A stretch of 64,000 nt of DNA from a virus. Shown in pieces: positions 12,485 to 25,112 of this stretch; the stretch's first letter is position 1; each line of letters begins with the position of its first letter. A program made the translations under genes and the position numbers. The notes beneath the pieces were generated by a model. The model did not search any database. It was not told the origin of the DNA and saw only the letters and a program-made list of their open reading frames with translations. The stretch lies in UHGV virus genome UHGV-0091736. One strand, 5' to 3'.

Positions 12485-13091
12485 CATTTACGTTATTCCC
12501 AAATTACTTCGGGTATCGGACTATATCATAACAGTATAGCTAATTTACTGTTGTTGGCGCTTCGAGGGTTTCCCTGTTAACCCCCTACTCCCGCAGGATA
12601 GTCTCTACACTTTCCACTTTCGAATCCATCTACAAGCGATTCCAAAGCTCACACCAAACCTTTCTGCAAGAGCAACACCAGTGCATTCATTGTTAAGCCA
12701 GAACTCTTTAGCAGCATCCTGTCTTTCTCTATTTCTGCCAGTGTTTGATTCAATAGCATGTGCACTACCTTCTAAGATTTCTAGATGGTCAGTATTACAA
12801 CAAGCTCTATTCTTGCATTTATGGTTAACTTCATAACCGTCAGGAATTTTTCCAAATTCCTCTTCCATGACGTATCTGTGATACATGACCCATTTGCCAT
12901 TTATCACTTTTCGAAAGTAACCGTCTTTATTTAATTTGTGTGAGATAGGGATGATACATCCTGTGCTAGTTGTTTCTAGCACTAGATCTTTCTTAGCCAT
13001 ATCACCTCCTAATAGCTTAGCTCGGTATTGCCCTCAACTTAATGGTCGGGTTTCACCGAGTTCACCAACTTTTACATGCACAATGAAGTTT
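12485..13091 (-). mobile_element. Self-splicing intron (probably group I) in the DNA polymerase gene, carrying an HNH ORF
   Basis: Exon 1 ends in T (CAT), intron ends in G (ATG); splicing restores HDE motif C in frame. Confidence 0.65.
12605..13000 (-). CDS. Intron-encoded HNH homing endonuclease
   Basis: GYEVNHKCKNRACCNTDHLEI motif; AGGAGG Shine-Dalgarno upstream of ATG. Confidence 0.7.
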   Translation of the reverse strand: MAKKDLVLETTSTGCIIPISHKLNKDGYFRKVINGKWVMYHRYVMEEEFGKIPDGYEVNHKCKNRACCNTDHLEILEGSAHAIESNTGRNRERQDAAKEFWLNNECTGVALAERFGVSFGIACRWIRKWKV

Positions 13092-14783
13092 ATGCATATC
13101 AATTACCTTAGCACAACGAACTCCATCCTTCTCAATCCACTTGTTAAGGAACATCATAGCGTATTTCATAACAACAGCACCAGCACATTGCAGGAGTGTG
13201 TTAAGTGCTTTATGAACCATAACTTTACCAGTGGCATCTCGTCTCATTGTAATCTTGCGACCATCAACACCAATCAAGTACCCTTGAGCAGCTTTCTCTG
13301 TCATGCGATCAATGAGGATTGCAATACATGGGTTCTCTGCCAAGAAACGTGCTCGCATCACTGAACCTTCATCAGCCCCGCCACCTACAATTGAACCAAG
13401 CTTAGCATCACCAGCACCATAGTTGAATGCATAGATAAATGTCTTAGCATTGTCACGAGTAGGGAGACCAGCAAGTTTCTGGTTGTGGGAGTGGATATCC
13501 CCTTCGAGGAGAATATCACGATACATAATAGCAGAAGCTAAACCGCGTTCTGCCAGAGCTTTCTTAGCTGGATTATTCTCTTCGATTGCTTCAGCAAGCA
13601 TATCTCTACATTCTTTGATGAGGTAGTGAGCGAGCATACGAAGTTCAAGTCCAGAACCATCATACCCTAAGAATACTTCTTTACCAGCGGGTATGTAATA
13701 TTTGTAAGCACCTACAGGTTTGTCTTTCTTCCCCGGCTTACCTTTCTCGTAAATTACGTTAGTACCTTTTCGTATATAACAACCATCAGGAACAACGTTA
13801 GTAATAACGAAAGGACGAGAGTGATCACTGTCTGAGTTATAGTCAGACTCAAACAAACTGCGACACTCGTGACCAAACAAACCACGGGAGGGAATATTAA
13901 CCACGATACGATGTTTGAATCGAAAAGTCGGCGTAGCGCAGCTGTTAGCTTCTGCCGAAAGTTTACCATCTTCGCGTTCCTTTGCTATAAGTCCACTGAT
14001 AAGACCTAGCCTGTGAGCCGCTACAACACGTCTCTTAAGCAAACTTCCAACACTCCCTAGCTCACCCCCTAACCCTTCTTCAAGAGTCTCCTCGAGGTTT
14101 GTAGGAGCTGTAGGCCACTTGTTTGATGTAGCTAGTGCTTTCTTAATCTCATCAAACGTTACAGGGTTACGGCGATTAGGGTTTAATCCCAAACCAAACA
14201 CGTAAGCCTTCATGTAATTCTTAGTCTTAAACCTAAAATGCTTTTCTAAGAATTTCTTGATATCAGCGTCAACCATCTCGGCTGTCTGCTTCTGCTTAGC
14301 ACTGCCTCTCATCCAAGCAGTGTACCAAGCCTGATATGTTCCATACTTTCGCATGTCTTTCTTAATTTCGAAAGTATTCCAAGGCTTCTTAGATACGTTA
14401 AACTCTGGAGGAAGAAAGCCCTCATCCATAAGAGCTTCTTTAACTCGTGCATCTTTCGATGGGTCAAAGTCTACATATTCTACACAGGTGAATGCTCCAC
14501 CAATGTCTTCTCTCTTCAGCCCAACCCTATCACAATAAGCTTGAGGCCACTTCTGCAAAGCACCAGACTTCTTAAACGGCTTCATGTAAGTAGAGCCATC
14601 TAATCTCATCTTAGGTAAGAGAGGAATCAACTCTCTATCAATATTAACAATAATCTCTTTAAGGAGGTGAACATACCACCGAGCATTTCTTCGGTTGAAA
14701 CTCACTCCGTGCTTTGCTTGCTTAGAGATTATATCAGCGACAGTCATCTCTGTCAAAAATGGAAGAGCGTCCGGGTTGCTCAC
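13092..14783 (-). CDS. Family A DNA polymerase (T7 gp5-like), exon 1, polymerase domain without the 3-prime to 5-prime exonuclease domain
   Basis: Motif B TRDNAKTFIYAFNYGAG and ALNTLLQCAGA; ORF stops 9 codons after the His of motif C. Confidence 0.8.
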
Positions 14784-14799
14784 TTTATACTCCTTTGAA

Positions 14800-15204
14800 T
14801 TATTGGTAAAGTAAATCTGTAAATGCTTGGTTGTCAGTTATTGCATCTAGGTCATTATGAGATACTCGGATAACATTACCTTCAACTCTCCACGGAGTTG
14901 GCGTAGGTGAAGACCTAACTTCAAGAGGCTGCTCTCTGACTAAATGGGCCATGACCCTCTGATTGGCAACTTCCTCTCTTTCTCGAATAGCTCTTTGGAT
15001 GTAGGCCAGCTTCATGCCCCAAGCTTCTTCAAACTCTTGAGGATGTTTGTCACTGATAACCACATACTGACGCTCAGGGATACCAGATCGAATCTCTGAT
15101 AATAATTCATGGAACAAATCAAGTTCATGTTCAGTGAGATTCATTTCGATATCATCCCACTTGAGAACTAAGAAACGGTTTTGATATCTAGTTGGTAATG
15201 GCAT
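14800..15204 (-). CDS. Hypothetical protein
   Basis: ORF only. Confidence 0.35.
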   Translation of the reverse strand: MPLPTRYQNRFLVLKWDDIEMNLTEHELDLFHELLSEIRSGIPERQYVVISDKHPQEFEEAWGMKLAYIQRAIREREEVANQRVMAHLVREQPLEVRSSPTPTPWRVEGNVIRVSHNDLDAITDNQAFTDLLYQ

Positions 15205-15207
15205 AGC

Positions 15208-23685: not shown

Positions 23686-23686
23686 T

Positions 23687-24244
23687 TTACATTTTCCAAT
23701 ATAATGAAGGTGGGTCGTAAGGGTCAAATCCTGTGAGTTCACACAAGAAAAGATAAACCTTAACAGTTAAGTTAACGTCCTGTTCACAATAAGTAAACAT
23801 ATCTTCAGTGAAAGCATCCCATGCTTCCTCTTGCTCACCGTAATCACCTTTAAGTTCCTCTAAGAACTCACCCCATTGCTTTAAGCCATGACCTCTTGGG
23901 CCATGTCTAGGGTCGCCTTTCGGGTACTCAGGACTGTCACCAATACGGTCAGGTTTAAGATATCGACTAAGACATAAAGTGTCAAAGACGTTAAAATGAT
24001 ATTCAATCAGATTGGGATACATCTTCTTCAGAGCACAAAGGTCGAAGTCGATAATGTTATGACCCACGAGTACATCAGCTTCTGTAAGTTTACGAATCCC
24101 ATCTTCAATTTGGTGAGGCCGATAGCCCCACCTTTCACCAGTTTCAACATCGAAGATATAAATACACCATACTTTAGTTATGTCGTCGTATAGTGCATTA
24201 CTCTCAATATCGAATGCAAACACTTTCTTCTTTTTCTTTACCAC
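23687..24244 (-). CDS. 3-prime to 5-prime exonuclease (DnaQ-like, homologous to the Pol A N-terminal exo domain), separately encoded
   Basis: Exo I FDIESNAL, Exo [11 protein letters not shown], Exo [12 protein letters not shown]. Confidence 0.7.
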
Positions 24245-24492
24245 GGTGAAGCTCCATCTGCTTGGTTGACGAGAGAAGCTGCATCCTCTCCGTTAGTTAA
24301 AACGAATGGATTATCTTCATCAACTTCAAAGTCTTCCCTTTCTACAAGTCTACCGGTTTCACTGATATACTTAGTATAACAGACACCTGTCTGACCGTAG
24401 TTACGTTCTTTCAGTAATCGAATGACTGAGAGGTTCTTAGCTAAGCCGTCAGCTTGCTTGTCACGCTCAAAGCCAATGATACACTGACACCA
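24238..24492 (-). CDS. Primase-helicase (T7 gp4-like), exon 2 (C-terminal 84 aa)
   Basis: [16 protein letters not shown]... resembles the T7 gp4 C-terminal region as recalled; no ATG (track start is TTG at intron end). Confidence 0.65.
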
Positions 24493-25112
24493 CAAAAGTT
24501 CAGATACAATCGCTACTTGTATCCCGCACCACTACATGCTGCTTACAGTTTCCTGCAAGATCGGACTATATCACCACACTATAGTGTGCCTACTGCTTCC
24601 ATTTAAGTCAATGTTAATGACACCACTTGGCTGTACTTCGAGCTTACGCCCACCCTAGTCTCTGCACTTTCTAAACAGTCTTCCGTTTATAATTAAAGAA
24701 ATTGTAACCTCTCTGAACATTCTCAGCGTTGGTTACCCACTCCAAATTAGATGCCACGTTATTGTCTCTTGTGTGGTCCAAGTGATCAATAAATGGGTAA
24801 TTGTGGGGGTTAGGAACAAAGGCAATAGCTACTAATCGATGCATGTAGAATTTCTTTCTTTGTCCCGTATCCATTCTTAAGTAAACAGTTAAATATCCGT
24901 TGCCATGTCTGGCCCATAAGATAACATTGCCTGTTTTACTATTATAAATCGTACCATCAGGCCGCACCCAATAATTAGATGCACCTTCTATTTGTTTTTC
25001 TTCCATAAAGCCTCCTTGCTCTTGGAAGACTGTCTAGCTTAGCTCAGGATTGGCATATCTTTCGACTTAGCTTTCCCTGAGTTCAATAGGTTTTACATGC
25101 GCAGGTTTGTTT
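24493..25112 (-). mobile_element. Self-splicing intron (probably group I) in the primase-helicase gene, carrying an HNH ORF
   Basis: Exon 1 ends in T (CGT), intron ends in G (TTG); shares conserved blocks with the DNA polymerase intron. Confidence 0.6.
24671..25006 (-). CDS. Intron-encoded HNH homing endonuclease
   Basis: IDHLDHTRDNNVASNLEW motif; AGGAGG upstream of ATG. Confidence 0.65.
   Translation of the reverse strand: MEEKQIEGASNYWVRPDGTIYNSKTGNVILWARHGNGYLTVYLRMDTGQRKKFYMHRLVAIAFVPNPHNYPFIDHLDHTRDNNVASNLEWVTNAENVQRGYNFFNYKRKTV

Follow-up and report, generated by a model that had tools for sequence, protein, structure and literature searches.

Three introns in essential genes of a Kuravirus

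The virus genome UHGV-0091736, analysed here as a single stretch of 64,000 nt (the window), carries group I introns in three genes, encoding a gp4-like primase/helicase, a DNA polymerase and the large terminase subunit. Megablast with the regions around the helicase and polymerase introns identified the window as a coliphage of the genus Kuravirus (phiEco32-like podophages of the Gordonclarkvirinae), with matches to ~70–80 Escherichia and Shigella phages of Kuravirus and its sister genera at 82–99% identity. Most Gordonclarkvirinae relatives lack the insertions and thus provide intron-less alleles of all three genes, a class of allele for which a first-pass annotation, made from the sequence letters, had suggested searching. 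The polymerase intron, for example, was present in 11 Gordonclarkvirinae records and missing from most others.

Comparison with intron-less alleles of related Kuravirus phages fixed the intron ends. The helicase intron (25112–24493, minus strand, 620 nt; reference allele in phage IMEP8) is bounded by TTATGCGT / AAACAAACC at its 5′ and CTGAACTTTTG / TGGTGTCAG at its 3′ junction, with the slash separating exon and intron. The corresponding junctions are GATATGCAT / AAACTTCATTG and AACGTAAATG / GATGAGGGC for the polymerase intron (13091–12485, minus strand, 607 nt) and GAAGAGGAT / TGTATATAAC and GAACAACACG / CCATATGAG for the terminase intron (53249–54022, plus strand, 774 nt), phage 172-1 supplying the reference allele in both cases. 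The first-pass annotation had marked a span of 12485–25112, which runs exactly from the 3′ end of the polymerase intron to the 5′ end of the helicase intron. All three 5′ exons end in T (U) and all three introns in G (TTTTG in the helicase, AAATG in the polymerase and ACACG in the terminase intron).

Joining the exons yields unbroken open reading frames (ORFs) of 596 (helicase), 614 (polymerase) and 513 amino acids (terminase), matching the 1791-, 1845- and 1542-nt genes of phage 172-1, respectively. If unspliced, the 3′ exon pieces would encode just 41 amino acids of the polymerase and 84 of the helicase. The helicase is cut after FTGSRSLMR, which we take, by comparison with T7 gp4, to be helicase motif 4; the polymerase between a His and an Asp codon (VIDMH/DEGQ), presumably within motif C of family A polymerases; and the terminase at DYIWLDEED/PYESM, presumably its Walker B region.

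The shared blocks belong to the ribozyme core

The first-pass annotation had listed several sequence blocks common to the helicase and polymerase introns and read them as a structured RNA core. All of the quoted strings exist on the strand given for them, and three of them are specific: across both strands of the window (128 kb), GCATGTAAAA, GAGCTAAGCTA and TGATATAGTCCGA (the latter listed as TCGGACTATATCA, read on the opposite strand) occur twice each, once per intron. Each block maps to defined paired (P) and joining (J) elements of a group I ribozyme. GCATGTAAAA comprises the guide sequence and J1/3, GAGCTAAGCTA spans P4′, P6, the internal loop and P6a, and TGATATAGTCCGA covers J8/7, P7′ and J7/9. 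A further block, TGAACTCRG, consists of the end of P3, J3/4 and P4; it had been given one base longer, as TGAACTC(G/A)GG, a string that is exact in the helicase intron only, the polymerase intron having TGAACTCGGT, so that TGAACTC(G/A)G is what the two have in common. Both introns start with AAAC, and both carry AGGAGG 4–6 nt upstream of the HNH start codon, as a ribosome-binding site within the P6a loop. None of the blocks lies inside an ORF, with just the final codons of each ORF reaching P6 or J6/7, and together they form the canonical group I core, whose helices covary. Neither outcome that the first-pass annotation had named as refuting its reading, a location of the blocks within coding sequence or a lack of consistent pairing, was observed. 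The shared blocks are hence the catalytic core of mobile group I introns in the helicase, polymerase and terminase genes.

Two further strings were rejected as conserved elements. CTTCGAG, reported from both 3′ parts, is indeed present there, but belongs to different helices: in the helicase intron it lies in the P7.1 3′ strand, and in the polymerase intron at the P7.2 end adjoining P3′. With seven occurrences of CTTCGAG/CTCGAAG in the window, it is also not distinctive. The 11-mer AACTCGGTGAA, proposed to tie in the terminase intron, is found at 53285–53295 and, within the window, exclusively in the polymerase and terminase introns. However, the copies are not positionally equivalent, as the terminase 11-mer consists of (A)A, the P3 5′ strand and J3/4, whereas its polymerase-intron counterpart consists of J3/4, the P4 5′ strand and J4/5. 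On account of this difference in structural position (P3 vs. P4), the string was discarded as evidence for homology.

A P2-less group I fold supported by covariation

Mapping of P1 to P9 resolved a canonical core without P2. In both the helicase and the polymerase intron, P1 comprises six pairs, the one at the splice site being U.G, and a 10-nt loop starting AAAC, followed by the guide G(C/U)GCAU, J1/3 (GUAAAA), a 7-bp P3, J3/4 (AA), P4, P5 and P4′. P6 (CU/AG), an AAG/AA internal loop and P6a, which closes the ORF-containing loop, then lead via J6/7 to P7 (GACUA), P7.1, GUA, P7.2, P3′, P8, J8/7, P7′ (UAGUC) and P9. Exon and guide pair in P1 as AUGCGU/GCGCAU (helicase), AUGCAU/GUGCAU (polymerase) and GAGGAU/GUCCUC (terminase), and the splice-site U.G pair was invariant in 9/9 panel introns. 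Features common to all three introns are the P7.1-GUA-P7.2 arrangement (UCCUGCGGGA-GUA-GGGG in the polymerase, GCUCGAA-GUA-CAGCC in the helicase and AGA-GUA-GAUACC in the terminase intron) and the lack of P2, with merely 5–6 nt between guide and P3 (GUAAAA in the helicase and polymerase introns, AUAAA in the terminase intron). The helicase and polymerase introns hold their ORF in the P6a loop, the terminase intron in the P8 loop. The three introns are members of one broad structural class, the P2-less IA2-like phage type with P7.1/P7.2.

MAFFT alignment of the ORF-deleted ribozymes placed the 5′ half well but scrambled P7.1 to P8. Helices were therefore read by hand and verified by script, and a covariance model was built for the contiguous 5′ domain only. 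The panel for pairing analysis comprised 11 introns: those of the window plus those of K1F, PT2, Vp_R1, VTCCBPA_211, C72C1, KBNP1711, Vibrio 184E37.3a and Proteus YP1. Over P1, P3, P4, P6, P6a and P7, 317 of 318 cells were canonical pairs and 19 of 30 pairs showed two-sided changes; neither figure was reached in any of 1000 partner shuffles. P7 itself was invariant in the panel and therefore provides no covariation evidence. Between the helicase and the polymerase intron, eight pairs differ on both sides yet remain paired, e.g. in P3, which reads CCUAUUG/CAGUAGG in one intron and GUUGGUG/CGCCAAC in the other. Among the 44 introns that the 5′-domain covariance model found in the sequences examined, P4 and P5 were 96.7% paired (vs. 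68% when shuffled and 14–44% when slid), and five of the six P4 pairs change on both sides.

At the Rfam gathering threshold, which is 50 bits for the group I intron family RF00028, no intron in the window was matched, and sub-threshold matches were retrieved in a permissive mode. These reached 48.6 bits (E 3e-11) for the helicase intron and 45.0 bits (E 5e-10) for the terminase intron, the latter alignment placing the ORF in the P8 loop, while the polymerase intron yielded only partial matches of 27.5 bits (3′ half, E 7e-5) and 11.2 bits. Known ORF-bearing polymerase introns likewise fall short (K1F, 35.7 bits; PT2, 39.0 bits; Vp_R1, 34.9 bits), and the K1F polymerase gene has been deposited as a spliced join. 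A sub-threshold score is hence normal for introns of this kind and attributable to long ORF inserts rather than to a missing fold. In the rest of the window, the permissive Rfam search and our own 5′-domain covariance model found no further group I match. The permissive search also matched a tRNA at 40343–40416 (minus strand; 60.1 bits vs. a gathering score of 29), which the search at the gathering threshold had not reported.

Each intron is closest to introns of other phages

The helicase and polymerase introns had been called paralogous in the first-pass annotation, a term that holds loosely at the level of the structural class; the two are not reciprocal nearest neighbours and their HNH proteins are not detectably similar. 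When the helicase and polymerase ribozymes were globally aligned without their ORFs, the score was well above that of shuffled sequences (z = 13). The polymerase ribozyme, however, scored 84, 83 and 78 against the introns of PT2, Vp_R1 and K1F, respectively, but 34 against the helicase intron. The helicase ribozyme scored 81 against the intron of VTCCBPA_211, 62 against that of KBNP1711 and 61 against that of Proteus phage YP1, and the terminase ribozyme 52 against a td-type intron vs. 23 and 13 against its genome-mates. In the ranking by whole ribozyme, the helicase and polymerase introns each stood behind 3–6 introns of other phages.

In the 5′ domain, identity between the helicase and polymerase introns is 79% once P5 is excluded, with a mutual rank of 5th of 39; across the various 5′-domain comparisons, this rank ranged from 5th to 22nd of 39. 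Orthologues of the polymerase intron in other phage families, at 86–88% identity over the same region, came ahead of the helicase intron. The 5′ domain of the terminase intron shares 60% identity with those of the other two (rank 27–29 of 39).

BLAST searches with the polymerase ribozyme returned the polymerase introns of Aeromonas phage PT2, Vibrio phage Vp_R1, K1F and many T7-like phages (73–80% identity), and those with the helicase ribozyme the introns of O18-011, KBNP1711, VTCCBPA_211 and Proteus YP1, the capsid-gene intron C72C1 and Vibrio nrd introns; in neither search was the lineage of the other intron among the matches listed. The encoded proteins show no detectable similarity between the helicase and polymerase introns (BLASTP E = 16), though both match Pfam HNH_3, and the three endonuclease ORFs fall into three PHROG families, i.e. 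6254 (polymerase), 59/959 (helicase) and 1035 (terminase). A P9.2 hairpin and 3′ tail are common to the helicase intron, VTCCBPA_211, KBNP1711, C72C1, td and the terminase intron, whereas the polymerase lineage lacks both. Judged by these comparisons, the two introns represent neighbouring lineages within a single P2-less subgroup, whose split is placed before the polymerase intron spread to different phage families. The first-pass annotation had inferred the spread of one intron family into three essential genes; nothing was found to indicate that an intron spread within this genome, each being closer to introns elsewhere.

The helicase intron

The 5′ core of the helicase intron (25024–25102, minus strand), taken from the helix table and a pairing check, holds the blocks GCATGTAAAA, TGAACTCAGG and GAGCTAAGCTA. 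It comprises the guide GCGCAU (25102–25097), J1/3 (GUAAAA), the P3 5′ strand (25090–25084), J3/4, the P4 5′ strand (25081–25076), P5 (25071–25053), the P4 3′ strand (25048–25043) and the 5′ strands of P6/P6a (25042–25024). Within the P6a loop, an ORF of 111 amino acids (24671–25006, minus strand), preceded by AAGGAGG and with its stop codon in the P6a 3′ strand, encodes a predicted HNH homing endonuclease (Pfam HNH_3, 35.3 bits, cut-off 24.8; PHROG 59/959), the best relatives of which in the phage database are 41–48% identical. The 3′ core (24493–24684, minus strand) consists of the 3′ strands of P6a/P6, J6/7, the P7 5′ strand (GACUA, 24660–24656), P7.1 (24651–24640), an extra hairpin, the P3 3′ strand (24595–24589), P8 (24588–24575), J8/7 with the P7 3′ strand (GAUAUAGUC; P7 3′ at 24568–24564), P9 (24559–24542), P9.2 (24523–24503) and the terminal G (24493). 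Unconstrained RNAfold prediction on the ORF-deleted intron recovered P1, P3, P4, P5 and P6a (z = −3.9).

Two contigs from a metagenome collection, ERZ1034739 NODE-23 and MAUZ01000001.1, harbor the same 620-nt intron at the same site, with 21–25 substitutions relative to the window. Intron positions 1–106 are free of substitutions among the three copies, and all substitutions in helices, including those of the 3′ core, keep pairing: G-C to U-A and G.U to G-C in P7.1, and C-G to U-A, A-U to G-C and A-U to G.U in P9.2. Copies were found only in this collection, the exon–intron junctions having no exact match in IMG/VR. A search for a foreign flanking tract beside the helicase intron found none.

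Related introns occupy further sites in and near this gene. A second site, 289 nt upstream (equivalent to window position 25401), holds a related intron, whose HNH ORF is a different one, in MAUZ01000001.1 (locus L043, 3983–4722) and VTCCBPA_211 (L012, 1484–2211); MAUZ01000001.1 carries both helicase introns in one gene (L043, 3983–4722 and 5011–5630). In Escherichia phage O18-011 (LC553735.1; L003, 644–1481), a group I intron lies just past the stop codon of an unbroken helicase gene. Its 3′ half is complete and an HNH ORF is present, but the P1 loop is incomplete and the 5′ splice site missing; a 43-bp copy of internal helicase sequence (window 25160–25118) comes next. It looks like an intron of a third helicase site parked in an intergenic region with a piece of its 3′ exon. 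In addition, the 21-mer AAGTCGAAAGATATGCCAATC, the P5 hairpin of the helicase intron, recurs exactly in 26 very different IMG/VR viral contigs (L014–L039), flanked by P4 helices of differing sequence, and several IMG/VR contigs (L015, L020, L025, L026 and L027) contain two to five introns of this family each.

The polymerase intron

The 5′ core of the polymerase intron (13012–13081, minus strand, from the helix table) scored 69 bits with the 5′-domain covariance model R1. Its parts are the guide GUGCAU (13081–13076), J1/3 (GUAAAA), the P3 5′ strand (13069–13063), the P4 5′ strand (13060–13055), P5 (13050–13031), the P4 3′ strand (13026–13021) and the 5′ strands of P6/P6a (13020–13012). The ORF in the P6a loop (12605–13000, minus strand, 131 amino acids), whose stop codon UAG overlaps J6/7 and P7, encodes a predicted HNH homing endonuclease (Pfam HNH_3, 46.5 bits, cut-off 24.8; PHROG 6254) that aligns without gaps to the intron endonuclease of coliphage K1F (54% identity, E 3e-55). 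The 3′ core (12485–12617, minus strand) comprises the 3′ strands of P6a/P6, the P7 5′ strand (12603–12599), P7.1 (12598–12589), GUA, P7.2 (12586–12565), the P3 3′ strand (12559–12553), P8 (12552–12530), J8/7 and the P7 3′ strand (12523–12519), P9 (12513–12498) and the terminal G (12485), without P9.2. RNAfold, unconstrained, recovered P1, P3, P4, P5, P7.1, P7.2, P8 and P9 from the ORF-deleted intron (z = −4.0).

Relative to the window, the polymerase introns of ECBP2 and PAS59 contain 75 and 48 substitutions in the ORF vs. 7 and 5 in the ribozyme, the sole helix change being a compensatory U-A to C-G in P8. As for the helicase intron, a foreign flanking tract was looked for and none was found. 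KBNP1711 (L005, 448–1228) and Proteus phage YP1 (L011, ~588–1390) bear an intron elsewhere in the polymerase gene (KTFIYAFN/YGAGD, equivalent to window position ~13420), with a P2 hairpin and with a P5 and P9 near-identical to their counterparts in the helicase intron described here; this site is uninterrupted in the window.

A polymerase-related ORF with an FDIE motif, which we take to mark a 3′–5′ exonuclease domain, lies beside the helicase gene (23687–24244, minus strand), ~9 kb from the polymerase-domain ORF (13062–14783, minus strand); both are annotated as ‘DNA polymerase’ in phage 172-1. This split seems to be a normal trait of these phages and not an effect of the intron.

The terminase intron and its flanking tract

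In the terminase intron, the guide GUCCUC (53275–53280) is followed by the P3 5′ strand (CUCGGUG, 53287–53293), P4 (53296–53301 and 53331–53336), the P7 5′ strand (53382–53386), the P3 3′ strand (53448–53454), P8 (53455–53462 and 53936–53943), the P7 3′ strand (53950–53954), P9 (53959–53976) and the terminal G (54022). The P8 loop harbors an endonuclease ORF of 179 amino acids (53475–54014, plus strand), which begins with TTG behind an AAGGAG and is read on through P8 3′, J8/7, P7 3′ and P9. It matched PHROG 1035 ‘endonuclease VII’ (E 4e-20) and gave no HNH match in Pfam. Like the endonuclease of the helicase intron, it is without a close relative in the phage database, and it is 54.6% identical to an ORF splitting the terminase gene of Proteus phages 3H10_20 and YP1. 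In 3H10_20 (L046, 580–1310), a different ribozyme interrupts the gene for the large terminase subunit at a point 6 nt upstream of the site used in the window. Since a homologous endonuclease sits in a different ribozyme in the Proteus phages, the terminase endonuclease and ribozyme appear to have had separate histories. The junctions of the terminase intron had no exact exon–intron match in IMG/VR.

Directly upstream of the intron, the end of exon 1 contains a divergent tract of ~450 bp (52800–53248, plus strand). Identity to 172-1 drops to 71–91% in 100-nt windows covering 52751–53150 and is 88% in the window spanning the junction; outside the tract, the terminase gene is 97–100% identical to that of 172-1, and exon 2 is so at 100% from its first base. 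The best match to the tract among phage records reached only 79.7%, so no donor was identified among them. The tract is likely a one-sided co-conversion tract, brought in together with the intron from an unsampled donor. Such a tract favors import of the terminase intron from outside over spread within the genome.

Origin of the three introns

We consider it highly probable that these are three ordinary mobile group I introns of the P2-less IA2-like type, related by common ancestry at the class level and each acquired separately by this Kuravirus. Each would split an essential gene within a catalytic motif (motif 4 of the helicase, motif C of the polymerase, Walker B of the terminase) and carry its own endonuclease gene. 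The transcribed RNA is expected to fold into the P1–P9 core, in which a guanosine cofactor would attack after the exon-terminal U, the partner of a G in P1; exon ligation, directed by the intron's terminal G, would then restore the reading frame. In mixed infections, the encoded endonuclease may cut or nick intron-less alleles, with repair copying the intron in. The blocks shared between the introns would correspond to the ribozyme parts that tolerate no variation, namely guide plus J1/3, J3/4-P4, P4′-P6, J6/7-P7 and J8/7-P7′. As to independent entry, the polymerase intron would represent the polymerase element of T7-like phages, the helicase intron a lineage residing at other sites in related phages, and the terminase intron a partly td-like element next to a foreign exon. 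Independent origins are suggested by the ribozyme scores, the BLAST neighbours, the shared H/DE site and 54% endonuclease identity with K1F, the three PHROG families, the ORF location in P6 vs. P8, and a co-conversion tract beside the terminase intron only.

Several points weigh against this reading. All three introns score below the 50-bit Rfam threshold (48.6, 45.0 and 27.5 bits), and splicing and cleavage by these particular copies are predicted from sequence. The panel used for ranking was small and partly biased, the IMG/VR loci having been fetched by means of the helicase-type P5 motif. Given the 79% identity of the helicase and polymerase 5′ domains outside P5, a shared ancestor within the P2-less subgroup is plausible.

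A more recent connection, in which one intron copied itself within the phage lineage into a second and third essential gene, would explain why the helicase and polymerase introns have the same layout up to P4 (guide at intron position 11, P3 at 23, P4 at 32), an identical J1/3, 70% identity over the first 70 nt (79% outside P5) and guides that differ by a single base, in accordance with the one-base difference between their targets (AUGCGU vs. AUGCAU). However, the same J1/3 and similar guides recur in the unrelated capsid-gene intron C72C1, P5, P7.1/P7.2, P8 and P9 differ between the two introns, and P9.2 exists only in that of the helicase. Moreover, their HNH ORFs are unrelated at the BLASTP level, both introns are clearly closer to introns in other phages, and K1F, PT2 and Vp_R1 lie as far from the helicase intron (scores 22–34) as its genome-mate does (34), making recent paralogy improbable. 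Somewhat less improbable, though still unlikely, is an ancient ectopic transposition, whereby reverse splicing carried a P2-less IA2 intron from site to site, into RNAs matching its guide (UGCRU targets), and endonucleases were gained later. Three of the six independent panel sites (helicase, polymerase and C72C1 capsid) end in UGCGU or UGCAU, yielding two near-identical target pairs where ~0.2 would be expected by a rough estimate, but the sample is small and the statistic was picked after the data had been seen. A polymerase-type guide (GUGCAU) could pair with the helicase target via G.U, and endonuclease and ribozyme histories are separate at the terminase site. The missing co-conversion tract at the helicase intron, in keeping with reverse splicing, equally fits homing from a near-identical Kuravirus donor such as those represented by the two metagenomic contigs.

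A reading that takes in the whole group, to which we give a slightly better yet still low chance, posits one radiating P2-less IA2 clade that colonised replication and packaging genes of the Gordonclarkvirinae by reverse splicing at UGCRU targets (polymerase, helicase and an unrelated capsid gene), swapped P5/P9 modules and gained endonucleases later. At least 5–6 distinct sites would be occupied by this clade: two in the polymerase (motifs B and C), two or three in the helicase, and the Walker B region of the terminase. By far the least credible option is that free-standing endonuclease genes split the three genes into separate polypeptides, the flanks being degenerate and without a working ribozyme. 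Sub-threshold Rfam scores and the 5′-truncated, apparently parked intergenic copy in O18-011 would be in keeping with this. Yet conservation of the ribozyme parts far exceeds that of the ORFs, with changes that are exclusively compensatory, the cuts lie inside catalytic motifs (H/DE and the Walker B region) and would leave 3′ pieces of just 41 and 84 amino acids (polymerase and helicase), the exon ends are compatible with P1 including its U.G pair, and G is the last base of every intron.

Under the preferred scenario of three separately acquired introns, the main weight of the finding lies in annotation: unspliced, the helicase, polymerase and large terminase genes would be called as truncated or duplicated ORFs, as is the case for several relatives in GenBank. 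The known repertoire of phage group I introns gains two sites, one within motif 4 of the helicase and one behind the Walker B motif of the terminase. No new mechanism is revealed. Related introns at different sites in close coliphages form a small natural system in which intron and endonuclease movement and recombination could be studied, the value of which is raised by the 450-bp foreign tract beside the terminase intron.

Comparison with known systems

Our literature search found no published description of introns in Kuravirus, phiEco32 or ECBP2, nor a paper describing the helicase or terminase insertion sites. The closest published systems are the polymerase introns of phages PhiI/W31 and Pf-WMP3, classified as group IA2 with P1 to P10 except for P2, a G-U-A linker between P7.1 and P7.2, P6a as the location of the HNH ORF, pairing of the last exonic U to G, and a 3′ G (PMC3428280); the PhiI/W31 intron carries the endonuclease I-TslI (Bonocora & Shub 2004, as cited in PMC3428280). 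The window's polymerase intron was likened to that of PhiI/W31 by this description rather than by sequence. It interrupts the same His/Asp codon boundary (H/DE) as the introns of K1F, Aeromonas PT2 and Vibrio Vp_R1, shares with the polymerase introns of T7-like phages the lack of P2, the P7.1-GUA-P7.2 arrangement and the HNH ORF in P6a, and is 73–80% identical to them in the 5′ half of the ribozyme. It differs in its host, a Gordonclarkvirinae podophage instead of the Autographiviridae, and in a P5 longer than that of K1F, PT2 and Vp_R1. Homology of site, ribozyme and HNH endonuclease assigns the polymerase intron to the polymerase intron lineage of T7-like phages.

The helicase intron groups, by sequence similarity, with Gordonclarkvirinae introns at other sites. 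Its P4-P5 is 92% identical to that of VTCCBPA_211, which occupies the upstream helicase site (site A), its P7′-P9 97% identical over 34 nt to that of KBNP1711 at the polymerase motif B site, and its P7.1/P7.2 84–85% identical to that of O18-011 and YP1; other introns of this group likewise possess the P9.2 hairpin and 3′ tail. Differences concern the insertion site, 289 nt downstream of site A as used in VTCCBPA_211 and MAUZ01000001.1, the HNH ORF, and the P2 hairpin, which KBNP1711 and YP1 possess and the helicase intron lacks.

For the terminase intron, two systems come into question. The thymidylate synthase (td) intron of T4-like phages, which encodes I-TevI, is the best neighbour in the panel (score 52), with ~85% identity over 77 nt of J8/7-P7′-P9-P9.2 and a similar P4-P5-P6 layout. 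Compared with T4 td, the terminase intron lacks P2, bears its ORF in P8 rather than P6, resides in a different host gene and encodes an endonuclease of the EndoVII/His-Me type as opposed to GIY-YIG. Proteus phages 3H10_20 and YP1 (Privateervirus) resemble the window in the homologous endonuclease (54.6%) and the interrupted Walker B region of the terminase. Their insertion, however, lies 6 nt upstream (WLD/EED vs. WLDEED/P in the window), the ORF follows P9 instead of residing in P8, and the ribozyme is a different one, with 61% identity in the 5′ domain overall and 81% outside P5.

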